DNA of 63,296 nucleotides from a virus (IMGVR_UViG_3300017978_000310:1-63296); one strand, 5' to 3'. Numbered from the stretch's first letter, positions 13,239-63,296 are shown. Made by a program: numbers and translations. The notes: generated by a model not told the origin, from the sequence alone.

Positions 13239-14993
13239 ATGAGGGAATTAAGGTATGTATGTGCTCAACCTGCTAACACGTTTTATGTATGGCAGGTTGA
13301 GACAATAATTAATAATTTTACAAAGAATGGAATAAGCCCTAGCAGTATTGATATATTATTGTCAATTAATGATAATGTTATTCCTGAGGATTGGATTAAG
13401 TTAAAGAATTATTATAGTGGCGTAAATTTTTATTTCTATAATGATACAAGGGATGATAAGTCATATCTACCTGGTGTTTATTTTTTCTTACTAAAAAGGT
13501 ATTCAGAAACTAATGACTTGTCAGATAAGGTATTATTCTTGCATGACAGCGACATAGTATTCACTAGGAGAGTAGATTTCTCTCAAATGCTTAATGATAA
13601 CATTTGGTATTTAAGCGACACAAATAGCTACATAAACTACGACTACATTCAGCAGAAAGGTAACCATGTTTACGAGAGTATGTGTGACATAGTTGGCATC
13701 AATAAACTGATACCAAAACTAATGAATTCTAATTCAGGTGGAGCTCAGTATATAGTTAAAAATACTACTCCTGATTTTTGGGACAAAGTAGAAAAGGACT
13801 CTCTTAAGCTATACAACCATTTCTGTGCTACCGAGCATTTACATATACAAAAGAATGACCACGACTATCCAATACAAAAATGGACAGCAGGTATGTGGGC
13901 TGTGTTATGGAACGCTTGGTTGTTTGGTCATGAAACTAAGGTAGATAAAAGATTAGATTTTGGGTGGAGTACCAATGATATTAGTGATGTAGATAAATAT
14001 TGTATCTTACATAACTCTGGCGTGCTAGATAAAAATAGCGGATTGTTCTTTAAGACAGACTACTTAAACAAGTTGCCTTACAATGACAATTTAGACATAA
14101 CCAAAACAAAGGCATCTTATTATTATTGGTCAGAGGTAAAAGAAGCAGGTAAAAAATCATTTATAAATAAAAAAGAAGTAAGCGATAAGGTATCTTTTAT
14201 TTGCACCACATACGGCAGGTTTAATTGTGTACGTAGAATTGTTGCACAATACCATGCACAGACTCACCCTAATAAAGAGTTAATAATATTTAACACAGAT
14301 GTTGACCATCCGTATGAATTAGGGTTTAATGATCCATCAATTATTGTTGTTAATAATAATATCGATTATAAAACTCAAAAGCCATACACTAATCGTGGTG
14401 ACATTTGCAGAGATGCTATTATCTATGCTTCAGGGGATTATTTTATGTTAGCAGATGATGATGATATATACCTTCCTTGGCATATGGAGCAAGCAGTAAA
14501 TGGAATCATTCTAAATAACAAAGATGCTTGGAAGCCTGAGAAAAGTTTTTACGCAAACATTAATCATCTTGAGATATCTAAGAATGTAATGGAGGCATCT
14601 GTTATTGTTAAAATGGATAGGATCCGGGAGATTGGATTTAGAAATGATATCACAGGATACGAAGGATTATCTTGGTATATGCAATTAGCTTCTGAGGGCC
14701 AGCTTAATGAGCAGGATACATACTATGTTCCTTCTTATTGTTTTAATTGGTCTGATCCACAGGAAATAGGTGGACACAAGCAAAGTGGACACATAGATGA
14801 TGTAAATAATTTTGATAATCATAAATTAAATTGCACAGATTATGCTACTTCACCGCTTACGCCAATTAATAAAGATGAGCTTTATGGGGAGTATTTAAAG
14901 TATTATAATTTTATTATTGAGAACAAGAGTTTATTTAATAATGATTTATTTGAAAAATATATTTCAAGTCATTTATTAAAAGATAATATGTAA
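13239..14993 (+). CDS. Two-domain glycosyltransferase (GT-A domain + GT2-like domain)
   Basis: N-domain LFLHDSDIVF (DxD); C-domain VSFICTTYGR..YFMLADDDDIYLP is a classic GT2 pattern. Confidence 0.8.
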   Translation: MRELRYVCAQPANTFYVWQVETIINNFTKNGISPSSIDILLSINDNVIPEDWIKLKNYYSGVNFYFYNDTRDDKSYLPGVYFFLLKRYSETNDLSDKVLFLHDSDIVFTRRVDFSQMLNDNIWYLSDTNSYINYDYIQQKGNHVYESMCDIVGINKLIPKLMNSNSGGAQYIVKNTTPDFWDKVEKDSLKLYNHFCATEHLHIQKNDHDYPIQKWTAGMWAVLWNAWLFGHETKVDKRLDFGWSTNDISDVDKYCILHNSGVLDKNSGLFFKTDYLNKLPYNDNLDITKTKASYYYWSEVKEAGKKSFINKKEVSDKVSFICTTYGRFNCVRRIVAQYHAQTHPNKELIIFNTDVDHPYELGFNDPSIIVVNNNIDYKTQKPYTNRGDICRDAIIYASGDYFMLADDDDIYLPWHMEQAVNGIILNNKDAWKPEKSFYANINHLEISKNVMEASVIVKMDRIREIGFRNDITGYEGLSWYMQLASEGQLNEQDTYYVPSYCFNWSDPQEIGGHKQSGHIDDVNNFDNHKLNCTDYATSPLTPINKDELYGEYLKYYNFIIENKSLFNNDLFEKYISSHLLKDNM

Positions 14994-45884: not shown

Positions 45885-47429
45885 ATGATAGTTAAAGAAA
45901 TCTCATTCGGCAAAGAAGGCCGAGACAAATTAATCAAAGGTGTGGATGCGGTGGCGAACGCTGTCGGCTCTACATTAGGGGCACGGGGTCGGACTGTGCT
46001 CATCGAGTCAGAGCAACACGTTGGAGGGATCACGGTCACAAAGGATGGGGTGACAGTTGCTAAGTCAATTAACTTATTGGACCCGGCTGAGAACCTAGCG
46101 GTGATGATCATGCGAGAGGCATCAGAGAAGACTGCCAACTCGGCAGGCGATGGGACAACGACAAGTATGGTGCTGGCACAGGCCATCATCCATGAGGCCA
46201 TGGCTCAGATTGAGCCGAGCGATAACTTGACACAGGTGCTAAGAGATATCCAAGAGGCGAGCACAGAGGTGCTGGCTAAGTTAGATCAGATGTCGGTCGA
46301 GATTACTAACGACAAGCTTGAGTCAGTTGCTACAATCTCTGCTAATGGGGACACGGACACGGGTGGCATAATTGCTGATGCGTACAGTAAGGTGGGGCTG
46401 ACCGGAGTGGTGAGCGTTGAGCCAAGTAAGGATGCGATGACATACTCGGAGATTATTAGTGGCATGAAGATAGATCGTGGGTTCACAAGTAAGTACTTTG
46501 TGACTGACCATAAGAAGCAAGAGTGCGTGCTAGACGATCCATATATCTTGGTGACTGACCAGCCTATTAGTCATATTAATGACATCTTCCCAATACTTGA
46601 GTATATACTTGAGGGTAACAAGTCATTGCTAATCATTGGCGAGTTAGAGGAGAATGCTCTGAACACGCTGAACGCCAACAAGATTAAGGCGAAGTTAAAG
46701 GTGTGCACAATTACTCCTCCGCAGTTTGGCTACAAGAAGCATCAGTTGATGGCAGACATTGCTCATGCGACAGGGGCTAAGTATTTCTCAGAGCAGACAG
46801 GGGACAACTTGGCGATGGTGAGCATCGATGACCTGGGGCGTGCTAAGAAGATTATTAGTGGCCGGTTCAATACTTTGATCCGTGAGCCAGGTGGCTTGGT
46901 GGATGAGCGAGTGGCAGAGCTACAAGAGCAGTTAAATGTGGAGACAAGCGGGATCGAGAAGGACTTCTTAAAAGAGCGTATAGCTAACCTTGGTGGTGGG
47001 GTTGCGGTGATCTATGTTGGGGCACAGTCTGACATTGAGCAGAAGGAGAAGAAGGACAGAGTGGACGATGCGGTGTGTGCTGTCAGAGCTGCACTTGAGG
47101 AGGGCATTCTACCAGGTGGTGGGGTGGCACTAAAAGATGTGGCGGTTGAGATGGCTGTTTTAAACAAAGGGGCGTATATTCTTAAAAACGCTATGTTGGC
47201 TCCTATGAACAAGATATTATCTAATGCTGGCTATGACCTACATAGTGAAACAATTAGTAGTATGACAGAAGGCGTTGGGGTAAACGTGGTGAACATGGCC
47301 ACGGCTAATATGATGGACATAGGGATCATCGATCCAACGAAGGTGACAAAGGAGAGTTTAAGGAATGCTGTTAGCGTAGCAACTACATTACTTTCTACCG
47401 ACACAGTTATTACTAATATTAGGGCATAA
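45885..47429 (+). CDS. groEL: Chaperonin GroEL (Cpn60), no GGM tail
   Basis: TKDGVTVAK, AGDGTTT, EEGILPGGG and GIIDPTKVT motifs. Confidence 0.95.
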   Translation: MIVKEISFGKEGRDKLIKGVDAVANAVGSTLGARGRTVLIESEQHVGGITVTKDGVTVAKSINLLDPAENLAVMIMREASEKTANSAGDGTTTSMVLAQAIIHEAMAQIEPSDNLTQVLRDIQEASTEVLAKLDQMSVEITNDKLESVATISANGDTDTGGIIADAYSKVGLTGVVSVEPSKDAMTYSEIISGMKIDRGFTSKYFVTDHKKQECVLDDPYILVTDQPISHINDIFPILEYILEGNKSLLIIGELEENALNTLNANKIKAKLKVCTITPPQFGYKKHQLMADIAHATGAKYFSEQTGDNLAMVSIDDLGRAKKIISGRFNTLIREPGGLVDERVAELQEQLNVETSGIEKDFLKERIANLGGGVAVIYVGAQSDIEQKEKKDRVDDAVCAVRAALEEGILPGGGVALKDVAVEMAVLNKGAYILKNAMLAPMNKILSNAGYDLHSETISSMTEGVGVNVVNMATANMMDIGIIDPTKVTKESLRNAVSVATTLLSTDTVITNIRA

Positions 47430-47461: not shown

Positions 47462-47550
47462 AATCCGAGTTGGTAATATTGCAGCTTACTAATTCGGATT
47501 ATCAAGGAAACTTGACCGCCCCCTTCGCTGCAATCGTTGGGGGTTTTTTT
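47462..47550 (+). ncRNA. Candidate structured leader RNA (three hairpins, loop-loop pairing, U tract)
   Basis: 15-bp stem, GAAA-capped stem, C5/G5 stem + T7; loop ATTGCAGC is complementary to GCTGCAAT. Confidence 0.55.
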
Positions 47551-47553
47551 ATT

Positions 47554-48051
47554 ATGGAAATCTGGAAACCAGTAAAAAATTACGAAGGCTTATACGAAAT
47601 AAGTAACTTAGGAAGAGTAAATAGTTTGTTTACTAGAAAAGGTAGAATTATAATACCTAAAACAGAAAAAGGTGGATACCAAAGGATTGGTCTTAGAAAA
47701 GATAATTCACAAAAATTATTTAATGTTCACAGATTGGTTGCTGAAACTTTTTTAGAAAAAGAAGAGTACCAAAATCAGGTAAACCATAAAAATAAAATAA
47801 GATCCGACAATAGGGTTGATAATTTAGAATGGGTATCATCTATTGAAAATCATTTTCATAAAAATTTAAATTCAAATACAACTAGTAAATACGTAGGTGT
47901 AGCATGGGATTCAAAAAAAAGAAAATGGGTTTCATATATAAATTTTAATAAAAAGAAAGTACATTTGGGTGTTTTTAATTCTGAATCTGAAGCATATAAT
48001 GCAAGATTAAATTTTCAATTAAATAATAATATAAAAAATAAATACGCATGA
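47554..48051 (+). CDS. NUMOD4-HNH-AP2 homing endonuclease
   Basis: MEIWKPVKNYEGLYEISNLGRV; HRLVA..VNHKN..DNRVDNLEWV; SKYVGV..KW..HLGVF. Confidence 0.9.
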   Translation: MEIWKPVKNYEGLYEISNLGRVNSLFTRKGRIIIPKTEKGGYQRIGLRKDNSQKLFNVHRLVAETFLEKEEYQNQVNHKNKIRSDNRVDNLEWVSSIENHFHKNLNSNTTSKYVGVAWDSKKRKWVSYINFNKKKVHLGVFNSESEAYNARLNFQLNNNIKNKYA

Positions 48052-52950: not shown

Positions 52951-55900
52951 ATGGCAAGAATTAGTACATATCCCAATGATACAAATGTTATAGGGGCAGA
53001 TAAGTGGATTGGATCAGATGCAAATAATAGCAACGAAACAAAGAACTTTACAGCTGATGCTGTAGCTGCTTACTTTAATAGAGCAAGCGTTATTGATACA
53101 GGACAGTTCTCTTGGGACTTTGTTGTTTACTCTGATACTGTTATTCAAACAGACAAGACATTTTCTTTAGTTGGCTACACAAATACAAACATTAATATTA
53201 ATCAGTTAGAGGGTATTTTAAAAGTATCCTTCTTAACTCTCGCTAATACAACTCCAGGGGTATTTATTCAAGATCAATGGCTAAATAAAATTATCTTAGC
53301 CCATATCCCTAATTCACCAAGCAGTTATGCTTTGTATCGTATTGACGATATTGAGCTGGTTGGAGATTTTTATTATTTGACTACGCATCTTGTGGATGCT
53401 TCAACAGGTAATATTCTTGTTAACACCCCTGTTGCTTTTGGTATTTTTGAGGGTGTATCAGGAACTAATGGTACATCAGGAAGTTCAGGCACATCAGGAT
53501 CAAGTGGTATCAACGGAACCATGGGTACCTCAGGTACAAGTGGTACGACAGGAACTTCTGGTTCTAGTGGAACTACGGGAACCTCAGGGACTTCAGGTAC
53601 GACAGGTACTTCAGGTACGACAGGTACAAGTGGTATATCGGGTGATAGATATCGTGGCACATCAACAACTTCATTTACATTAGGAAATGCAGGCACAATT
53701 ACAACTCAATTAGGGTTGTCATTTACTACTGCACAATCTATCATTATTGTTTATGATTCTAGTAATTACCAAGAGTGCGAGATTATATCCTATGATGCAG
53801 GTAATGGACTATTAACTTTTGCTGCACCTAATAGAACAGTTGGAGCAGGAACATATAATTCTTGGACTATCAACTTAGATGGTGCAAGTGGTGGAGATGG
53901 ATCGTCAGGTACATCGGGTACAAGTGGAGTGAACGGAACAAGTGGAGTGAACGGAACAAGTGGTACTAATGGTACTTCAGGAACAACAGGTACTTCAGGG
54001 TCTTCGGGTACTACAGGTACATCCGGATCTAGTGGAGTAAATGGTACATCAGGAACGACAGGAACTTCTGGTATTAATGGCACAAGTGGGTCGAGTGGAT
54101 TTAATGGGTCAAGTGGCACATCAGGTTCTAGTGGACTTACAGGTACATCAGGTGTCTCCGGATCTTCAGGAACCTCAGGTGCAAATGGTATAGCAGCTGG
54201 TAGAACTTTTTATTTCAACCAATCTCAAAACTCAGATGTATCACCATATAAGGTGTTAAGTGAGGAGCCATCGGGTGCTGTAGAGCAAGTGGTTACAAAA
54301 ACATTAACAGGTAGCCAACAAGGTGTTTTAGTTCAAGAGTTTTTAACTCCTCAATTAGGTTTCCCTATTATTCCATCGGGAGTTCAAAGATTTCATTTGC
54401 ACTTTTTAAAACCTGCATCTAATGATAACATTGATGCATATGTGAGTATTGAGTTAGCAAACTCAGCGGGTATATCATATGGTACTGTAATCGAATCAAA
54501 TAAATCATTAATTGGTTGGGTTAGTTCAACTTCATCTGTTGAAGTTTTTGTAGATATAACTTTGCCTACAACAGGTATAAATAGTACAGATAGAATGATT
54601 GTTAAGATTTATCTTGACAACAATACATCTTCTTCTAAAATTGTAAATTGGTATACAGAAGGCAATTCTGCTTATTCTTATGTAATAACATCTGTTGGTA
54701 CAAGTGCTGGTACATCAGGAGTAAATGGTACAAGTGGAACTAGTGGCACTACGGGTACATCGGGGACTGCTGGATCTTCTGGTTTAACAGGAACATCAGG
54801 TGTTAATGGAACGAGTGGTACAGATGGATCATCAGGAACAAGCGGTTCTACAGGATCATCGGGTGCATCTGGAACTTCAGGAACAAGTGGAGTTGATGGT
54901 ACAACAGGCTTGTCAGGAACATCAGGTACAAGTGGAGTTGATGGTACAACAGGTACTAATGGTACATCTGGAACTAGTGGCCTAGCAGGAACATCAATTC
55001 GTGTAGAACAGAATTTTGTAGCGACAGCAGGCCAAACTACATTTACCATTACAGGTGGATATACTATTGGACTTATTGATGTATACATTAATGGTGCTAG
55101 AATTTTACCTACTGACTATACAGCAACCAATGGAACAACAGTTGTATTATCAACAGGTGCTGCATTAAATGATACTGTAACGGTATTAAATTATACAGGT
55201 ACAATAGCTGGTGGTGTATTAGGAACAGGTACAACAAACTATGTGCCTAAGTTTACTTCATCTTCAACTATTGCAAATTCGTTAATTTTCGATAATGGCA
55301 CTAATGTTGGAATTGGAACTACTTCTCCTGCACAAAAATTAGATGTAAATGGTGCAATTAGAACATCAGGTAATTTCTTTGCAGTAAATAATACTCCACT
55401 TAGTACAAACGGAACAATTACATATCATGATACGGTTGGTTTAGTTTTAAAAGGTGCGACAGGTTTTGCATTTGATTTTTCAGTTTACAATCCTGCTGGC
55501 AATATTTTAATTTCAAATCCTACTGGTACTAATAATATTGCATTTAGTTCGGGTAATGTTGCAATATCCAATGGTAGTTTTAGTATTAATGGTGGAACTC
55601 AACCAACTGGTAACGGATTGCATTCTTATTTTGCATCAAATGTTTCAAACATTGAATCTTTGCAAGCTGGAGTAGCTTGGAGAGATTTATCAATAGCTGG
55701 TAATGATGTATATTTTAAAAGTGGTGGTATTGAAAGAATGCGAATTAATTCAGCAGGAAACGTTGGAATTAATTTAGCTAATCCATCACAAAAATTGATG
55801 GTAAATCAAGGTGCAACAGGTTTTAATCAAGGTATCCCTGCAACAAGTGGTTCAACACAAAATGGAATATTTAGATTAGTTCCTGCAAATGGAATTTATG

Positions 55901-56385
55901 GTGAAGTTTTAGACTTTGGAATGAATATTGCAACTACCTACGCATGGATTCAAGCAACAAATGCAGGCAATTTAGGAGTAAACTATGACCTTTCATTAAA
56001 TCCTAATGGAGGAAGTGTTGCAATAGCAAGGGCTGTACCAAATTACACACTTCATGTTAACGGGTCAGTAGCAGGGACTTCTGCTTATATCAATTTATCA
56101 GATAGTCGATTTAAGAAAAATATAAAACCATTATCTAATTCACTTTCAAAAGTTCTTCAATTAAGTGGTATTTCTTTTGATTGGAATAAAGAATTTGATG
56201 AATCAATTAATCTTGATGAATTAAATCATATTGGTTTACTTGCACAAGAAGTTGAGAAAATTATTCCTCAATCTATATTTACTGCAAATGATAAAAATAA
56301 AACTAAATCTGTTGCTTATACTGATTTAGTACCTGTGTTAATTGAAGCCATTAAAGAACTAAATGCAAAAATAGAAGCAAAATAA
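52951..56385 (+). CDS. Fibre protein with three Gly-Thr/Ser collagen-like blocks and a C-terminal S74 intramolecular chaperone
   Basis: (G-X-Y)n at ~53452-53643, 53881-54189 and 54697-54996; NVGIG repeats; SDSRFKKNI..GLLAQEV..LIEAIKEL. Confidence 0.85.
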   Translation: MARISTYPNDTNVIGADKWIGSDANNSNETKNFTADAVAAYFNRASVIDTGQFSWDFVVYSDTVIQTDKTFSLVGYTNTNININQLEGILKVSFLTLANTTPGVFIQDQWLNKIILAHIPNSPSSYALYRIDDIELVGDFYYLTTHLVDASTGNILVNTPVAFGIFEGVSGTNGTSGSSGTSGSSGINGTMGTSGTSGTTGTSGSSGTTGTSGTSGTTGTSGTTGTSGISGDRYRGTSTTSFTLGNAGTITTQLGLSFTTAQSIIIVYDSSNYQECEIISYDAGNGLLTFAAPNRTVGAGTYNSWTINLDGASGGDGSSGTSGTSGVNGTSGVNGTSGTNGTSGTTGTSGSSGTTGTSGSSGVNGTSGTTGTSGINGTSGSSGFNGSSGTSGSSGLTGTSGVSGSSGTSGANGIAAGRTFYFNQSQNSDVSPYKVLSEEPSGAVEQVVTKTLTGSQQGVLVQEFLTPQLGFPIIPSGVQRFHLHFLKPASNDNIDAYVSIELANSAGISYGTVIESNKSLIGWVSSTSSVEVFVDITLPTTGINSTDRMIVKIYLDNNTSSSKIVNWYTEGNSAYSYVITSVGTSAGTSGVNGTSGTSGTTGTSGTAGSSGLTGTSGVNGTSGTDGSSGTSGSTGSSGASGTSGTSGVDGTTGLSGTSGTSGVDGTTGTNGTSGTSGLAGTSIRVEQNFVATAGQTTFTITGGYTIGLIDVYINGARILPTDYTATNGTTVVLSTGAALNDTVTVLNYTGTIAGGVLGTGTTNYVPKFTSSSTIANSLIFDNGTNVGIGTTSPAQKLDVNGAIRTSGNFFAVNNTPLSTNGTITYHDTVGLVLKGATGFAFDFSVYNPAGNILISNPTGTNNIAFSSGNVAISNGSFSINGGTQPTGNGLHSYFASNVSNIESLQAGVAWRDLSIAGNDVYFKSGGIERMRINSAGNVGINLANPSQKLMVNQGATGFNQGIPATSGSTQNGIFRLVPANGIYGEVLDFGMNIATTYAWIQATNAGNLGVNYDLSLNPNGGSVAIARAVPNYTLHVNGSVAGTSAYINLSDSRFKKNIKPLSNSLSKVLQLSGISFDWNKEFDESINLDELNHIGLLAQEVEKIIPQSIFTANDKNKTKSVAYTDLVPVLIEAIKELNAKIEAK

Positions 56386-56386
56386 T

Positions 56387-57037
56387 ATGTCAAAGAATAC
56401 AGATTTAGGTAATTTAGTTAATGGACTTTTTGTTAGTTCTGCTAATAATGTTGGAATTGGTACGACTGCTCCAAGTTATAAACTTCATGTTACAGGAACT
56501 TCTGGAGTAGGAGCAAGAACAATTCAAGCCGATGGAACGGGTACTGCATTTAATATAGTATCAGTTATCAACAATGGTTCGCAAATGTTTTTAGCTGCCG
56601 AGGGTAGTACAGCTGGAACGGTTGCAACTGGATCGCTAGCGTATGCTGGATTAATTGACATGAATACCAATACTGCTTTGCAATTCGCAACTTTTGCAAC
56701 GGTAAGAATGACAATAAGTAACGGCGGAAATGTAGGAATAGGAACTACTAATCCAACTTATAAACTACAAGTTGAAGGAAATACATTTTTACACGGAGAT
56801 ATTAGCTTTGGTTTATATGGCGAAACAACATATTTTAGATCGGTACAAGTATTAAATTATTTGGTAATTGGAGGTTCTGAAAATATTACTTTTCAAACTT
56901 ATAATAATGATGCCTGGGGGGCAAGAATGACTATAAAGAAAAATGGTATTATAAATTTTTCAAATGTGCCTAGTTCGTCATCAGGTTTATCAAGTGGAGA
57001 TGTTTATAAAATTGGTGGTACCTTAATGATAGTTTAA
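56387..57037 (+). CDS. Short fibre protein
   Basis: Two NVGIGTT.P..KL.V.G repeats. Confidence 0.7.
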   Translation: MSKNTDLGNLVNGLFVSSANNVGIGTTAPSYKLHVTGTSGVGARTIQADGTGTAFNIVSVINNGSQMFLAAEGSTAGTVATGSLAYAGLIDMNTNTALQFATFATVRMTISNGGNVGIGTTNPTYKLQVEGNTFLHGDISFGLYGETTYFRSVQVLNYLVIGGSENITFQTYNNDAWGARMTIKKNGIINFSNVPSSSSGLSSGDVYKIGGTLMIV

Positions 57038-57069
57038 AATAATATTTTAAAAAACACAAACAAATAATT

Positions 57070-57402
57070 ATGACAACAGAATATACTTGGCAGGTAGTAC
57101 AAATGGATACTAAGCCACAAGAAGGAAATTTAATCGATGTAGTAGTAGTAGTACATTGGATTAGAAATGGAGTAGCTGTAGATGGAGATAAGACATACTC
57201 GGCATTTCTATATGGAACTATGGCGTGTCAAACTCCATCTGAGACTGACTTTACTGCATATCCAGATTTGACATTTGAGCAAGTTTGTGGATGGTTAGAT
57301 GCTGGATTAGATGTGCCTGCATTAAATGCTAACATAGATTCTCAAATTGAGGGTCAAATTAATCCTCCAATTATAATTTTACCGCTTCCTTGGATTTCTT
57401 AA
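57070..57402 (+). CDS. Fibre-associated small protein
   Basis: YTW..VVVHW..FTAYPDLTFEQVCGW..LPW pattern; follows the fibre genes. Confidence 0.6.
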   Translation: MTTEYTWQVVQMDTKPQEGNLIDVVVVVHWIRNGVAVDGDKTYSAFLYGTMACQTPSETDFTAYPDLTFEQVCGWLDAGLDVPALNANIDSQIEGQINPPIIILPLPWIS

Positions 57403-57423
57403 TGTTATTATTTAAATTGCTTT

Positions 57424-58119
57424 ATGGCATATTTATACAGACACATTAGGTTAGATAAAAATGAGCCATTTTATGTGGGGATTGCGACTCACTTAAAAAG
57501 AGCTTATGATAAATCTTCTAGAAAAAATAAAATTTGGAAATCAATAATTGCTAAAACTGATTATGAAGTTCAGATTTTATTTGATGATTTAACTAGGGAA
57601 GAAGCTTTAGAAAAAGAAAAAGAATTTATTTCTATTTATGGAAGAATAGATTTGAAAAATGGTACTTTATCTAATCACACAGATGGGGGAGAATATTTTA
57701 ATGGATTGTGGAATAAAGGAAGAAAGGCTTCAGAAGAAACTAAAGCTAAACAACGTGAGGCAGCAAAAAATAAGCCTCCTATGTCTGAAGAAACAAAAAG
57801 AAAAATATCTAATTCTCATAAAGGAAAATCTATTTCTGAAGAAACTAAAATAAAATTATCATTAATTAATATAGGTACAAAAAAAAATCCCTGGACTGCA
57901 GAAAGAAGGATTAAGATTGAAAATTCATGGAAATCTAAAATAGAAAAAATATCTCAATATGATTTAGAAATGAATCTTATAAAAATTTGGGACAATAGAA
58001 TAATTGCTAGTGAAGAATTAAATATAAAAAAAGATTGGATAAGAAATTGCTTAAGAGGTAAAATGAAAAATGCCGGTGGATTTATATTTTCTTATTTAGA
58101 TTCTAATATAATTTCTTAA
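57424..58119 (+). CDS. GIY-YIG-like homing endonuclease with NUMOD3 repeats
   Basis: YLYRH..FYVG..RAY; three SEETK repeats; C-terminal HTH. Confidence 0.85.
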   Translation: MAYLYRHIRLDKNEPFYVGIATHLKRAYDKSSRKNKIWKSIIAKTDYEVQILFDDLTREEALEKEKEFISIYGRIDLKNGTLSNHTDGGEYFNGLWNKGRKASEETKAKQREAAKNKPPMSEETKRKISNSHKGKSISEETKIKLSLINIGTKKNPWTAERRIKIENSWKSKIEKISQYDLEMNLIKIWDNRIIASEELNIKKDWIRNCLRGKMKNAGGFIFSYLDSNIIS

Positions 58120-58140
58120 TTTTACAAAAAAAATAATAAA

Positions 58141-58410
58141 ATGAAAATAGACTTTAATTTTAGCTTATTGGATTTGGATGGTAATCCAATTGAAAATGCA
58201 AACGTAGGAAAGCTTATTGCTAACATCCTTGTACAACAATCTAAAGGCGATCCACTTAAGTTTTGGGATTGGGCTTTAGATTTAAATAAAGGTAAAGAGC
58301 TAGATCTTGACTCTTCCGATCAGGAAACATTTAGAAACTTTATTAAAGAAAATGAGCAGATTACAATTATTGCTAAGGCTCAGATTCTTAAAGCTTTAAA
58401 GAAAGATTAA
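58141..58410 (+). CDS. Hypothetical protein
   Basis: 89 aa, A-rich start. Confidence 0.6.
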   Translation: MKIDFNFSLLDLDGNPIENANVGKLIANILVQQSKGDPLKFWDWALDLNKGKELDLDSSDQETFRNFIKENEQITIIAKAQILKALKKD

Positions 58411-60427
58411 TTTCTTTTATTACATCCTCAGCAGAGATACTCTTATGGCATTCAAATTGTCTTGGAGTATCTTTGTGTCTTGGGCACCAATCCCAATCTC
58501 CTTTGTCAAATTTTAAATTAGGATCGTTCCAGCATCCGTTGCATACTGATTTGTTTTCGACACGAATACATTGAAATTCGTGTGATTCCACGGAAAAGTT
58601 TGCTATCATAACCACAGGTTTGCCTAAAGCCCAAGCCAGCCAGCTTACGCCTGAGCCTAATCCAATAAAAAACTGACTCATGTTTATTAATGACATAGTA
58701 TCTTCTATGTTGTGATTAATAATCTGCTCGCAATTATCAAATGGGTTTTCTTCTAGAGACACGTTTATAACTTTGTACCCTTTCTCGTGCAAGTAATTAA
58801 TAACACCTTGCCATCCTTCTTTGGTCCAAAACTTACACCCGGCTGTTGAGTTGGTTGCAATAGTAACTGTCTTTTTAATATATACCTTAGATTTAGTTGG
58901 CTTGTACTTTAACTTGGGCTTAATCTCGCTAAAATCTAATCCAAGAATATTAGTAGCAGCTTGTTGTAATGGGATAGTATTTGGCAAGACAGGCTCACGA
59001 TTTGAATCATAGTACCAGCCTATGTTATATTGTGCTGCGATGTTCTCAACTTTTGATCCTGGCTCTACTATTTCTATCTCAGGATAGTCCAGTATATTTG
59101 CAAAAAAACTGGACAAAATTACTTTGCAGTTATGCTTTTTTTGAAACTCTAAAGCGTAAGGAGCCCAAGCAATATTGTCACCAAGTGATTTACTATCGAT
59201 ACAAATCAAAACACGCTTTCCTTCTAAATTAAGCGTACTTTCGTAAATCTTCTCCCCTTTCTCATATACTTCAACAGACCATTTCTCGTAGTATTGTCTG
59301 TTTAATCTAGCCCAAGAATTGTTCGAAATTGTGTTCTCGTAAACAACTTCACCTATACCATTTTTCCATACTAGGTGGAACCAAGATTTGACAGCAGATT
59401 TTATCTCAAAATATGGGCCGTTAACATTGTGTTCTATTATCTGAACGTCTTGATCTTCGATTGGATTTTCTAAACATTTTGTATATGTAATAGATAGTTT
59501 AGTTACAAATTCCATCCAATTGTCATATGTAGGAGTAACATAGTTAGCTTTGATTGTATTTAAGTCTGTGTCAATTGGCTGTATGTAAGCCGCATATCTT
59601 CCGTGGTACTGTGGTAGGTTATGTCCAATAATTGGTAAGTTATATGCAATAGCCTCACGCAATGCAAGTGGATTGCATTCAATTGTGCTATTGAACATAA
59701 AGACATTAGAGTACTTTAAAAAATCATCTACATCATCACGTTCTCCCCATACTTTAACATTAGGAGGTAAGTCTTTCATCAACGGCTCCCAATACTCTTG
59801 GAAGTTTCCTGCTTGGTTTCCAACAAAGTGAAATATCCAATCAGGATTCTTTCTTGCAATCTCTATGCCCTCAGCTTGATTTTTTCCTGGTGTCCACAAA
59901 CCAACATTAACGACATACTTTGTGTCTTCTTGTTTTTCGGATTCTTTAGGATCAATAGGGAATTCAATAACATACTTTGCCTTTGTAGGCATATTCTTAA
60001 ATGTAACTTCTTTATGATAACTCGAGCAGAATGCATATGCATCAGGATGAAACTTTCTTTCTTTATCCGGATTAAAGAATACATCATGACAAGTCTCAAT
60101 AATGCGATGTGATCTTGTTGGCGTGTATAACTCTGCCATTACATCGTGATCAAATCTCTCAGCCACATCATGAAGATGAATGATATCAGGCTTTATACTT
60201 GCTACTATGTCAAGTAATTCTGATTTGGTATCACCAAGAGTATATACTTTGTTGCCAAGTATTTCTTTTATTGCATTGCGATGAACCACAAAATCTGCTG
60301 TAAAGAACCTATATTCAACTACGTGTATATCGTACATTTCGTTTAATAATTGTACTTGCTTAAGAAGAAAAGATGGCATCCCTCCTGTAGATAAGTGAGG
60401 GGCTAAGTATAAAATCTTGGATTTCAT
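58388..60427 (-). CDS. GT4-like + TibC/AAH-like (autotransporter O-heptosyltransferase family) fusion
   Basis: PHLSTGGMP, KNQ and FNSTIECNPL..REA (GT4); KRVLI..SLGDNIAW, FFIGLGSGVSWLAW and C-x2-C-x15-C-x11-C. Confidence 0.85.
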   Translation of the reverse strand: MKSKILYLAPHLSTGGMPSFLLKQVQLLNEMYDIHVVEYRFFTADFVVHRNAIKEILGNKVYTLGDTKSELLDIVASIKPDIIHLHDVAERFDHDVMAELYTPTRSHRIIETCHDVFFNPDKERKFHPDAYAFCSSYHKEVTFKNMPTKAKYVIEFPIDPKESEKQEDTKYVVNVGLWTPGKNQAEGIEIARKNPDWIFHFVGNQAGNFQEYWEPLMKDLPPNVKVWGERDDVDDFLKYSNVFMFNSTIECNPLALREAIAYNLPIIGHNLPQYHGRYAAYIQPIDTDLNTIKANYVTPTYDNWMEFVTKLSITYTKCLENPIEDQDVQIIEHNVNGPYFEIKSAVKSWFHLVWKNGIGEVVYENTISNNSWARLNRQYYEKWSVEVYEKGEKIYESTLNLEGKRVLICIDSKSLGDNIAWAPYALEFQKKHNCKVILSSFFANILDYPEIEIVEPGSKVENIAAQYNIGWYYDSNREPVLPNTIPLQQAATNILGLDFSEIKPKLKYKPTKSKVYIKKTVTIATNSTAGCKFWTKEGWQGVINYLHEKGYKVINVSLEENPFDNCEQIINHNIEDTMSLINMSQFFIGLGSGVSWLAWALGKPVVMIANFSVESHEFQCIRVENKSVCNGCWNDPNLKFDKGDWDWCPRHKDTPRQFECHKSISAEDVIKEINLSLKL

Positions 60428-60756: not shown

Positions 60757-60961
60757 AATATCTATTGGTCCTGATTACAAGAATGCTATGAACTATACTC
60801 ACGGGCAAGAAGTCCTTGATAAGTCATATCGTATTCATTTAATTAAACAAGAGGATAGTGGCTCGGTTAGTATTTTTATTGAGAAGAATACTGAAGTTAT
60901 TCTTTGGAAATCAATTGCATCAACTACACCATTTGTCCTCGAGTATAACATCGAGTTCTAA
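60743..60961 (+). CDS. Hypothetical protein
   Basis: 72 aa, coupled on both sides. Confidence 0.65.
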   Translation: MLIRKISIGPDYKNAMNYTHGQEVLDKSYRIHLIKQEDSGSVSIFIEKNTEVILWKSIASTTPFVLEYNIEF

Positions 60962-61509
60962 TGAAGTCTCCATTTTATTTTATCGTAAAGCCAAAAGATG
61001 GTAAGCGATATGATGATGAGCGTAATGGCATCATTTTATCCACGTCTAAGGAAGATTATAAAACAGCCACTCGTGAGGCTGTTGTAATCGCTACACCAAT
61101 TGGATATAAAGGTCCTATTCAAGAGGGTGATGTAATCATTGTTCATCATAATACTTTTAAGTATTACTATGATATGCGTGGCCGTGAGAAGTCATCATGG
61201 AATTATTTTCGTGATGATTTGTTTTTTATCGATGATCCATACGCATACAAGCATGAGTGTGAAGATTGGAAAGGAGTTGGCCGATATGTGTTTGTTTCTC
61301 CTGTTGAGAACGACCATACTGGCATTACCACTATTGATGCAGAAAAGCCTCTTGTTGGCACGATAAAGTATGCGAATGATGAAGTACTTGACCTTGGTCT
61401 TAAAGTGGGCGATATGGTCACGTTTGAGCCTGAATCCGAGTATCCTTTCTGGATTGACGAAACCAAGGTTTATAGAATGTACACCAAAAATCTAACTATT
61501 AAGTTATGA
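60961..61509 (+). CDS. Tandem GroES-fold-like protein
   Basis: Two units of V.P..GI..V/I..GD.V. Confidence 0.55.
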   Translation: MKSPFYFIVKPKDGKRYDDERNGIILSTSKEDYKTATREAVVIATPIGYKGPIQEGDVIIVHHNTFKYYYDMRGREKSSWNYFRDDLFFIDDPYAYKHECEDWKGVGRYVFVSPVENDHTGITTIDAEKPLVGTIKYANDEVLDLGLKVGDMVTFEPESEYPFWIDETKVYRMYTKNLTIKL

Positions 61510-61787
61510 GTCGTATAACAGAATTAAAGAAACGCATTATTGACTCAGGATATAAAGCCGTTGAAGAGTTAATTAAAGTTGCTGAAGAGAAGATTGTTAC
61601 GCACCAAGACGATGACTTAAGTGCAGACAAATTAAAGAATGCTGCCCAAGCTAAGAAGTTAGCCATCATGGATGCATTTGAAATACTTAAACGTGTAGAG
61701 GAGGAAAGCAACATTATAGAGGGCGTTGTTAATAATCAAGTTAATACCAACCGAGGTTTTGCTGAGTCTAGAGCCAAGAACAAATGA
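61506..61787 (+). CDS. Probable terminase small subunit
   Basis: Helical, 93 aa, ATGA-coupled to terL. Confidence 0.55.
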   Translation: MSRITELKKRIIDSGYKAVEELIKVAEEKIVTHQDDDLSADKLKNAAQAKKLAIMDAFEILKRVEEESNIIEGVVNNQVNTNRGFAESRAKNK

Positions 61788-63296
61788 GTCTATACAAATT
61801 AGTTTACGATCTTGTTCCACAAAAGATTCTTGACAAGAAGAATGCCAAGAAAGAGTGGGAGTACGGATATAATCCAGAGTATGATATTATTATTATATCT
61901 AAGGATGGAACTCTAGGAGATATATACGACATACAGAATCTTAGAGTAGGATTACCTAAGACACCTGAAAAGGTATCATACAAAGGCAATAAGTGGGAGC
62001 CTGTTGAGTTACCAAAAGAACTATCACGCATTAAAACAATTTTTGATTGGAATAGGCGTGATAACTCGTTTAAGAACCAATGGGTTGATTTTGTTGAACA
62101 AGAGTTTGATCGAAGAGAGTTTGGCTATTGGTTTATAAACAAGGGTGTAAAGACTTATATGTCAGGGCACCATTATATGTATCTTACTTGGTCAAAGACT
62201 GACGTTGGTCATCCTGACTTTCGTGAATCAAACCGAATATTCTTTTTATTCTTTGAAGCTTGCAAAGCAGACACTAGATGCTTTGGAATGTGCTATCTAA
62301 AAAATAGACGTTCTGGCTTTTCTTTTATGGCCTCCTCTGTTTCCGTAGATATTGCTACCTTAGCAAAAGATGCTCGTATTGGTATGGTTTCTAAAACAGG
62401 CCCGGATGCTAAGAAAATGTTTACGGATAAGGTTGTTCCAATTGCAAATAACTATCCATTCTTTTTCCAGCCTGTGCGTGATGGTATGACCACACCAAAG
62501 ACTGAACTTGCATTCCGTGTACCTGCATCTAAGATTACACGCAAGAACATGGATCAGGAGCAGGATGAGGAAATTGATGGATTGGATACATCTATTGACT
62601 GGAGAAACACAGCTGATAACTCCTATGATGGCGAGAAGCTTCGATTCTTAATTGAGGACGAGGCTGCTAAATTAGAAAGGCCAATGAACATTGAGAATGG
62701 TTGGCGTATTCGTAAGACTTGTTTGCGACTAGGGGCAAGAATTATTGGTAAGTGCATGATGGGTTCTACATCTAACTCACTAGACAAAGGAGGAGAAAAC
62801 TATAAAAAATTATATCATGATTCAGATGTCACGAAAAGAAACAAAAATGGTCAGACGTTATCGGGTCTTTATTCGCTCTTTATACCGATGGAGTATAACT
62901 TTGAGGGATACATTGATGAGTACGGTCACGCAGTATTAGAGACTCCTGAAAAGCCAATTAAGTCTGCTGAAGGTACTTGGATAACGCAAGGAGTGATTGA
63001 GTATTGGAATAACGAGGTGTCATCTTTAAAATCAAATCCTGATGCACTTAATGAATTTTATCGTCAGTTCCCAAGAACAGAATCTCACGCATTCCGTGAT
63101 GAGACTAAATCATCTATTTATAACCTAACCAAAATCTATCAGCAGATAGATTATAACGATGGGCTTATTCAGGATCACGTATTAACCAAAGGATTCTTTC
63201 ATTGGAAAAATGGTGAAAAGGATACAGAGGTTATTTGGACACCAGATAAAAATGGCAGGTTCTTGGTATCTTGGATACCTGAAATATCAATGCGTA
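61784..63296 (+). CDS. terL: Terminase large subunit, N-terminal ATPase part (missed by the ORF track; runs off the end)
   Basis: ATG 61784; KNRRSGFS (Walker A variant), FLIEDEAAK (Walker B), MMGSTSN. Confidence 0.9.
   Translation, partial: MSLYKLVYDLVPQKILDKKNAKKEWEYGYNPEYDIIIISKDGTLGDIYDIQNLRVGLPKTPEKVSYKGNKWEPVELPKELSRIKTIFDWNRRDNSFKNQWVDFVEQEFDRREFGYWFINKGVKTYMSGHHYMYLTWSKTDVGHPDFRESNRIFFLFFEACKADTRCFGMCYLKNRRSGFSFMASSVSVDIATLAKDARIGMVSKTGPDAKKMFTDKVVPIANNYPFFFQPVRDGMTTPKTELAFRVPASKITRKNMDQEQDEEIDGLDTSIDWRNTADNSYDGEKLRFLIEDEAAKLERPMNIENGWRIRKTCLRLGARIIGKCMMGSTSNSLDKGGENYKKLYHDSDVTKRNKNGQTLSGLYSLFIPMEYNFEGYIDEYGHAVLETPEKPIKSAEGTWITQGVIEYWNNEVSSLKSNPDALNEFYRQFPRTESHAFRDETKSSIYNLTKIYQQIDYNDGLIQDHVLTKGFFHWKNGEKDTEVIWTPDKNGRFLVSWIPEISMR
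63242..63296. repeat. Terminal direct repeat, copy 2
   Basis: Identical to 1-55. Confidence 0.95.

Follow-up and report, generated by a model that had tools for sequence, protein, structure and literature searches.

The IMG/VR virus record IMGVR_UViG_3300017978_000310, analysed here over its entire length of 63,296 bp (the window), has direct terminal repeats and an estimated completeness of 100%, and it is a complete tailed-phage genome. Between positions 52951 and 60427 it encodes a tail fibre with three proline-free, collagen-like G-X-Y blocks and, on the opposite strand, an enzyme that by sequence and predicted structure fuses a GT4 glycosyltransferase to a TibC/Aah-type (BAHT) O-heptosyltransferase domain. 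The pairing of such enzymes with such fibres is widespread in phages. We consider it probable that the enzyme O-glycosylates Ser, and perhaps Thr, residues of the G-X-Y blocks, with the BAHT domain starting the glycan and the GT4 domain extending it.

The fusion enzyme and the fibre beside it

The enzyme gene (58388-60427, minus strand, 679 amino acids) ends 2003 nucleotides from the fibre stop codon and is the sole long minus-strand gene among the plus-strand genes of this region. Its product comprises a GT4 (Glycos_transf_1) domain at residues 1 to ~320 (59468-60427), a beta-barrel at residues 328-398 (59234-59446), whose strands are present in the structural model and which is the counterpart of the N-terminal barrel of TibC, and a BAHT catalytic domain at residues 405-679 (58388-59215 with the stop codon), all on the minus strand. 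Pfam PF00534 matched residues 158-271 (2.6e-12; 47.1 bits against a cut-off of 26.4), and TIGR04414, the Aah/TibC O-heptosyltransferase family, matched residues 352-674 with 255.3 bits against a cut-off of 200 (256.7 bits in a six-frame search of the window). A phmmer comparison with TibC (4rap) gave an E value of 4.4e-50. When an AlphaFold model made from 25 homologues (pLDDT, the predicted local distance difference test, 89.3) was compared with known structures by Foldseek, TibC was retrieved first (E 1.7e-26, TM score 0.82-0.84 on the target, ~370 columns aligned), followed by the GT4 enzymes BshA, PimA and WaaG at ~1e-9, in keeping with a GT-B fold of the GT4 domain. The lipopolysaccharide enzymes heptosyltransferase I and RfaQ were matched weakly, at 19-22 bits. 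By these comparisons the protein is a fusion of GT4 with a true TibC/Aah-type domain.

Residues were mapped by hand from the phmmer alignment onto the roles given in the available excerpts of PMC4358343, and their invariance was scored over 67 distinct phage homologues. The catalytic base of TibC, D110, corresponds to D417 in the motif SLGDNIAW, which begins at residue 414; 4rb4, the D110A mutant of TibC, has Ala in this column. The phosphate-binding T226 and K230 correspond to T528 and K532, and the sugar-binding W305 to W596. All four positions are invariant (67/67), and three of the four sugar-binding residues of TibC are retained. The iron ligands of TibC, Cys-339, 342, 358 and 370 (PMC4358343, excerpts), align with C629, C632, C648 and C660, which have the same C-x2-C-x15-C-x11-C spacing and are likewise invariant in the 67 homologues; the alignment indicates that the iron finger is kept, and metal binding is predicted. 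Since the GT4 pair E250-x7-E258 is also invariant in these homologues, both halves of the enzyme are very probably active. A preliminary description of this DNA had pointed to a glycosyltransferase on the opposite strand, about 2 kb from the fibre amid plus-strand genes, with the SLGDNIAW motif and a cysteine spacing likened to that of the TibC iron ligands. Each of these features is where it was said to be, and the alignment of the catalytic Asp and all four Cys, with the TIGR04414 and Foldseek scores, upholds the TibC-like identity.

At other positions the enzyme departs from TibC. R286, which contacts the adenine of ADP-heptose, is replaced by T577 (Thr in 67/67), P300, a determinant of heptose stereoselectivity, is replaced by G591 (Gly or Ser in the homologues), and the thumb at ~261-270, with F265 and V266, falls in a gap, so that none of the three is kept. 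The thumb is the beta-hairpin that builds the TibC dodecamer, according to the available part of PMC4358343, and the enzyme model is without a beta-hairpin between strands 552-555 and 566-568. With the thumb deleted, a TibC-type dodecamer is unlikely, and these three changes mean that both the donor and the oligomeric state may differ from those of TibC. At E <= 0.001 the wider BAHT domain family has 1,416 cluster representatives, and multi-domain architectures prevail among the best 150. In columns taken from the best 149 of the 1,416 representatives (184 rows), the Arg-286 position held T 55 times, R 37, V 27, L 12 and I 12, and a 12-residue loop in place of the thumb was the commonest form (95/184). 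Therefore, E. coli TibC, and not the phage enzyme, is the unusual member of the family.

PHROGs contains no family for the enzyme. Among deposited phages, tblastn matched only its C-terminal domain, in four records at 32-41% identity (Microcystis phage Mel-JY01 and three uncultured megaphage records). Automatic annotation already tags such viral proteins as 'Aah/TibC' or 'strand-loop-strand O-heptosyltransferase'.

The tail fibre (52951-56385, plus strand, 1144 amino acids) begins with an N-terminal domain, continues with three G-X-Y blocks that globular domains keep apart, and closes with a beta-rich distal region followed by the S74 chaperone at the C-terminus. The blocks, located by a regular expression on the translation as uninterrupted triplets, span residues 168-233 (53452-53649; 22 triplets, 66 residues), 311-415 (53881-54195; 35 triplets, 105 residues) and 587-682 (54709-54996; 32 triplets, 96 residues), all on the plus strand. 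None of their 267 residues is Pro, against 28 Pro in the entire protein. The lengths first proposed for these Pro-free blocks (~64, ~103 and ~100 residues) needed only slight revision, and the statement that X and Y are mostly T, S or N agrees with the counts over the 89 triplets: T (52), S (14) and V (9) lead at X, and S (55), T (13) and N (12) at Y. Between 22 and 35 perfect triplets in a row cannot be attributed to chance. The Pfam Collagen family matched the fibre at 8.6e-35. At the DNA level the repeats are degenerate, with 60-82% matches in nine of ten rows and one 44-bp array at 100%; the periodicity is therefore maintained at the protein level.

Peptidase_S74 (PF13884) matched residues 1050-1107 at 1.3e-14 (54.6 bits against a cut-off of 22). 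This intramolecular chaperone domain (residues 1050-1144; 56098-56385 with the stop codon, plus strand) is a mark of trimeric fibres, and from it the formation of a triple-helical trimer is predicted indirectly. The fibre falls in PHROG tail-fibre families, for example phrog_5073 at 3.7e-37, and its C-terminal region weakly matches the long tail fibre distal subunit 6f45.

Co-occurrence of enzyme and fibre across phages

At least 205 relatives of the enzyme were found in viral contigs, and 80 of these were analysed; all 80 are full-length fusions (48-85% identity) on contigs of 4-326 kb. An open reading frame (ORF) with at least eight G-X-Y triplets was present in 51/80 of these loci. Nearly all such ORFs have 0-1 Pro and a Thr+Ser fraction of 0.6-0.97, and without exception they are encoded on the other strand from the enzyme gene, mostly 0.3-5 kb beyond its 3' end. 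The remaining 29 loci have no G-X-Y ORF, and many of them have short flanks. When the loci were reduced to 19 clusters at 75% identity, nine had large G-X-Y genes (>40 triplets), five had small ones and five had none within 10 kb. For five loci without an adjacent G-X-Y gene the entire records were searched, and collagen-like genes were found in 4/5, Pro-free and with 0.74-0.97 Thr+Ser.

As a control, we examined 80 loci around relatives (61-91% identity) of the terminase of this phage. The enzyme was present in only one of the 80, that of the closest relative (the same contig as enzyme locus L003). A Ser/Thr-rich G-X-Y ORF was found in 0/80, and a Pro-containing one in 1/80. In sister genomes at least 99% complete, neither Collagen (0/5) nor TIGR04414 (0/5) was detected. 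The enzyme-less sister phages do carry homologues of the S74 domain, of the distal fibre domain and of two genes downstream of the fibre, orf216 and a DUF7936 gene. Because the sisters keep these other modules without the enzyme, the enzyme appears to go with the G-X-Y blocks specifically.

The association was also approached from the fibre side, with viral records picked by a (G-[ST]-[ST])x7 DNA pattern. This gave 80 loci in 63 contigs, and 44 contigs were examined from the 50 of at least 15 kb. TIGR04414 was present in 16/44 of these records and above its cut-off in 14/44. Six of the 44 were simple GCS, GSC, GAS, GQQ or GTT repeats, all without the enzyme, which leaves 16/38; of the true Gly-Ser/Thr records with a completeness of 60% or more, 7/8 had the domain. 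In contrast, viral records picked by (G-P-X)x5 had TIGR04414 in 1/45, and that single record also has a Gly-Ser/Thr collagen. A Fisher test of 16/44 against 1/45 gave p = 2.7e-5, ignoring the relatedness of the records.

The 77-residue domain that separates the first two G-X-Y blocks (residues 234-310; 53650-53880, plus strand; no Pfam match) had blastp homologues in 22/81 enzyme loci and in 0/80 enzyme-less loci around the terminase large subunit (TerL). These homologues, of 41-84% identity, always lie between G-X-Y runs, jumbo-phage fibres included. The domain may be a trimerisation knot or an enzyme docking site. The short gene orf89 (58141-58410, plus strand, 89 amino acids) runs towards the enzyme gene, and the two overlap at the 3' end of the latter. 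In the same place, homologues occur in 23/81 enzyme loci and in 0/80 enzyme-less sister loci, and the 17 distinct sequences compared are every one 89 residues long; by these counts orf89 is co-inherited with the enzyme. Its model is confident (pLDDT 92.4), with no Pfam match to the protein, no PDB fold match at E <= 0.001 and Atlas matches to viral hypothetical clusters only.

Outside the viral records, nine contigs from metagenome-assembled genomes (MAGs) carry relatives of the enzyme, as searched with GT4-domain patterns only, and two of the nine have Ser/Thr G-X-Y ORFs. These contigs are probably mis-binned phage DNA. In 400 other sampled genomes of the candidate host phylum, that of the MAG holding a related contig, TIGR04414 was not found (0/400).

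Glycosylation of the G-X-Y blocks and its alternatives

The composition of enzyme-linked G-X-Y repeats was determined on 61 distinct ORFs with 6,924 triplets. GTS accounts for 48.5% and GSS for 21.8% of the triplets, with Ser at Y in 74.7% and Thr at X in 61.5%; Pro amounts to 0.04% and charged residues to 4%. Prokaryotic and viral collagens are stabilised by Pro at X and by Lys-Asp/Glu salt bridges, as set out in the available excerpts of PMC11923368. With almost no Pro and few charges, the known collagen stabilisers are therefore absent from these blocks. The same excerpts name Thr glycosylation as a possible alternative stabiliser and cite earlier work in which (Gly-Pro-Thr)10 folds only if galactosylated. 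TibC modifies Ser, not Thr (PMC4358343, excerpts), and Ser at Y is the most conserved feature of the repeats; Y-position Ser is therefore a natural candidate and, by analogy, the most likely acceptor.

We suggest that the pair could work as follows. The S74 chaperone would nucleate a trimer of the 1144-residue fibre, and collagen-type triple helices would arise from its three Pro-free (Gly-Thr/Ser-Ser/Thr)n segments, with a total length of ~75 nm if the usual rise of ~0.29 nm per residue holds. The enzyme would act in the host cytoplasm with the fibre as its substrate. Its BAHT domain would place a first sugar, with host ADP-heptose as the most likely donor, on hydroxyl side chains of the G-X-Y blocks, most likely those of Ser at Y, and the fused GT4 domain would add a second. 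The resulting glycan coat could substitute for hydroxyproline, Pro or salt bridges by providing hydration and helix stability, and it may also shield the fibre or render it sticky. Helix stabilisation by glycosylation is plausible by analogy; shielding, solubility or adhesion are equally open as roles of the glycan. The preliminary description had likewise read the pair as a TibC-like enzyme stabilising the triple helix by glycosylation. The homology stands, and the fibre as presumed substrate gains strong comparative support from the distribution of the two genes in phages. That description missed the GT4 fusion, the loss of Arg-286 and the thumb, the specificity of TibC for Ser rather than Thr, and the spread of the pairing.

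Relatives of the enzyme suggest what kind of glycan may be built. In some, the GT4-BAHT core is extended to 990-1506 residues by SAM/FkbM methyltransferase, pyruvyl-transferase, GT25 or second GT9 domains. Genes for GT9, GT2, aminotransferase, NeuD/PglD-type acetyltransferase, radical-SAM, 2OG-Fe(II) and carbamoyltransferase proteins flank the enzyme in relatives, and APS kinase and sulfotransferase genes do so in 10-12 loci, including the closest relatives L002 and L004. These accessory genes resemble a toolkit for the assembly of decorated oligosaccharides. In three loci (L077:12544-16381, L060 and L076) the enzyme is directly followed by HldD-like, HldE-kinase-like and HldE-adenylyltransferase-like genes, for each of which the named family is the best match with a score below its curated cut-off. 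Judged by these matches, the gene set of the L077 type is a phage-borne ADP-heptose-type donor and sulfation set, and its position next to the enzyme favours a donor of the ADP-heptose type. Loci of this type continue with cupin, APS kinase and sulfotransferase genes. The APS kinase, sulfotransferase, HldD/E-like and other accessory genes of the relatives were not found in the window by tblastn. Matches resembling rfaE domain II occur in 5/11 enzyme-bearing phage records, all below the cut-off and beside the enzyme in one record, whereas an equivalent above the cut-off was found in 96/151 sampled genomes of the candidate host phylum. The phage of the window would rely on its host for the donor. 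In the jumbo-phage relatives L063, L073 and L056, genes for a 2OG-Fe(II) oxygenase (P4H-type), a radical-SAM protein and a carbamoyltransferase adjoin the enzyme, there is no adjacent G-X-Y gene, and inteins split neighbouring genes.

Several points weigh against glycosylation of the fibre. The substrate assignment draws wholly on gene neighbourhood and co-occurrence. The loci are interrelated, so that the counts are not independent, and a fibre and enzyme cassette moving jointly would yield an equal pattern. No G-X-Y gene lies within 10 kb in 5/19 clusters, and 22/38 Gly-Ser/Thr records are without a BAHT domain; most of these are fragments, one is 84% complete, and such fibres can therefore exist without the enzyme. 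The natural substrates of TibC are beta-helical repeats (PMC4358343, excerpts), not collagen. The departures from TibC at Arg-286, Pro-300 and the thumb affect positions relevant to mechanism. Finally, there is no ADP-heptose gene in the window, and GmhA was found in 0/11 enzyme-bearing phage records.

Among the alternatives, it is conceivable but in our judgement unlikely that the enzyme has some other phage protein as its target, for instance the capsid, the tail, orf216 or the beta-rich distal fibre, and that its proximity to the fibre reflects a shared mobile structural cassette. The beta-helical substrates of TibC (PMC4358343, excerpts) would suit the distal fibre region and orf216, both of which carry recurring beta-type motifs that weakly match a beta-helical trimerisation domain; known phage virion glycosylation affects the C-termini of capsid and tail-tube subunits (Freeman 2023, as cited in the excerpts of PMC12619734), and the five clusters without a nearby G-X-Y gene point the same way. 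However, homologues of the distal domain, S74, orf216 and DUF7936 are all present in enzyme-less sisters, the enrichment of the BAHT domain is in Gly-Ser/Thr records (16/44) and not in Gly-Pro-X records (1/45), and a non-adjacent G-X-Y gene was found elsewhere in the same record in 4/5.

We give very little credence to the idea that the target lies on the host, where the enzyme would modify lipopolysaccharide or a surface protein in the course of infection, for example to block superinfection or alter adsorption. The protein-specific BAHT family is by far its best match, at 255 bits against 19-22 for lipopolysaccharide heptosyltransferases, even if GT9 and GT4 include lipopolysaccharide core enzymes, if lipopolysaccharide heptosyltransferase I, RfaQ and WaaG are weakly matched and if serotype-changing phage glycosyltransferases are known (PMC12619734, excerpts). 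The 49 ORFs scanned in the window showed neither an integrase nor a lysogeny gene, the absence of BAHT from 400 candidate-phylum genomes leaves no host system to plug into, and the link with G-X-Y fibres would go unexplained. Nor do we think it at all likely that the gene pair is real and its G-X-Y blocks unglycosylated, serving as flexible linkers or folding sugar-free, with the enzyme acting in DNA glycosylation or as a non-catalytic assembly factor. The invariance of the catalytic Asp, Lys, Thr and Trp and of the GT4 E-x7-E in 67 homologues argues for activity. GT-B enzymes do glycosylate phage DNA (Pyle 2024, as cited in the excerpts of PMC12619734), and Gly-Ser/Thr records without a BAHT domain exist, but the window shows no hydroxymethyl-pyrimidine pathway, only DNA methyltransferases, and the BAHT family is protein-specific as far as studied (PMC4358343, excerpts). 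None of these alternatives accounts for the tracking of the domain with Pro-free Ser/Thr G-X-Y genes rather than with Gly-Pro-X collagens or other fibre modules, and glycosylation of the G-X-Y blocks is the reading we prefer.

More tentatively, and with considerable doubt, we consider a broader proposal in which phages have an O-glycosylation system of their own, with a dedicated Pro-free collagen and docking or assembly factors, which the 77-residue domain and orf89 could be. Lake and sea phages would share this system, built on a thumb-less, Thr-for-Arg variant of the TibC fold with sugar-building and sugar-decorating domains. Uncharged (Gly-Thr/Ser-Ser)n would fold as a triple helix only once Ser at Y carried a sugar, so that a third way of stabilising collagen would join hydroxyproline and salt bridges.

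Genomic setting and relation to known systems

The fibre gene is followed by orf216 (56387-57037, plus strand), which encodes a 216-residue fibre-like protein, a second fibre or tip component (phrog_9942 tail fibre, 3.1e-12), with homologues in 5/80 enzyme-less loci too. Next come the gene for a 110-residue DUF7936 protein (57070-57402, plus strand; PF25590, 2.8e-25), which occurs with and without the enzyme in the loci compared, and a homing endonuclease gene (57424-58119, plus strand), which by profile matches resembles NUMOD3 and group I intron endonucleases. The latter is probably a mobile insert separating the fibre module from the orf89-enzyme pair. A second homing-endonuclease gene, of the NUMOD4-HNH type, is at 47470-48051 (plus strand).

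ORF scans of the window, Pfam and PHROG searches included, covered 49 ORFs, among them a portal protein; no integrase or lysogeny gene was seen in this set. The terminase large subunit (phrog_6681) is divided between the window ends (61784-63295 and 22-756), as expected of a circularly permuted or terminally repeated assembly. The virion proteins include one with a crAss-type muzzle C-terminal domain, the replication and recombination genes comprise a BT4734-like primase, a Sak annealing protein and an exonuclease, and two DNA methyltransferases and an M15 endolysin are also encoded. The phage has its own GroEL (Cpn60, 4.4e-54; 45885-47429, plus strand) and a GroES-like protein (phrog_13932; 60961-61509, plus strand), which has homologues in 71/80 sister loci. 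Within the virion module, a 584-residue protein (13239-14993, plus strand) matches phrog_4417 with its N-terminal half, and its C-terminal half is weakly GT-A/GT2-like (Pfam 9.7e-4; SpsA 1h7l 2.2e-4); it may be a second glycosyltransferase. No deposited phage record covers 80% of the 7.5-kb region, and the nearest such records match the window only in G-X-Y-coding stretches. Related contigs occur in MAG bins assigned to Sediminibacterium, Chitinophaga, Flavobacterium and Bacteroides, a weak hint that the host belongs to the Bacteroidota.

To our knowledge, the BAHT enzymes described so far all partner autotransporter adhesins of Proteobacteria. A literature search that had most subscription journals outside it turned up no paper in which a TibC/BAHT-type enzyme is connected with phages or collagen-like proteins. 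The fold is known; the architecture, the presumed substrate class and the carrier are new, and BAHT is encountered here as a gene common in phages, with another presumed substrate. Should the fibres be glycosylated, phage virion glycosylation would be far commoner than the mycobacteriophage case implies, and the stability of a collagen helix without Pro or charge pairs would be accounted for. Such a pair would also make the question whether Thr/Ser glycosylation precedes or follows helix folding, raised in the excerpts of PMC11923368, testable with one enzyme and one substrate, and such enzymes could serve the production of glycosylated recombinant collagens.

The closest known systems are the TibC-TibA and Aah-AIDA-I pairs of E. 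coli (PDB 4RAP/4RB4; PMC4358343, excerpts). They share with the phage enzyme the catalytic domain preceded by a beta-barrel, the LGD catalytic Asp, the equivalents of T226, K230 and W305, and the cysteine spacing of the 1Fe-0S iron finger. In them a long repetitive fibrous protein encoded nearby is hyper-O-glycosylated in the cytoplasm, and we propose the same here. Unlike TibC and Aah, however, the present enzyme is phage-encoded and has an N-terminal GT4 domain, with methyl- and pyruvyl-transferase fusions in relatives, and its presumed substrate is a Pro-free collagen-like tail fibre rather than an autotransporter beta-helix; no autotransporter is present in the window.

As far as we know, the enzymes that glycosylate BclA of the Bacillus exosporium and the cuticle collagen of Riftia are unrelated to BAHT. 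Both proteins, as described in the available part of PMC11923368, have G-X-Y repeats rich in a hydroxyl amino acid that replaces hydroxyproline, as here. In BclA the collagen-like stretch is O-glycosylated and Thr at Y is galactosylated in Riftia (PMC11923368, citing Daubenspeck 2004, Mann 1996 and Bann 2000), and O-glycans are proposed to stabilise triple helices of this type, as shown for (Gly-Pro-Thr)10 (PMC11923368, excerpts). Their repeats retain Pro at X (GPT), whereas in the phage virion protein Pro is absent and Ser is dominant at Y. Scl2 and EPclA (E. coli prophages), so far as the excerpted sources describe them, have trimeric collagen-like segments flanked by trimerisation domains, as we propose for this fibre, but depend on Pro at X and Lys-Asp/Glu salt bridges, which are all but lacking from enzyme-linked fibres with 0.04% Pro and 4% charged residues.

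The mycobacteriophage case reportedly involves no BAHT domain and no collagen-like substrate. In it, phage glycosyltransferases decorate the structural proteins of the phage itself, as we propose here, with the sugars carried on C-terminal extensions of the capsid and tail-tube subunits (Freeman 2023, as cited in the excerpts of PMC12619734).

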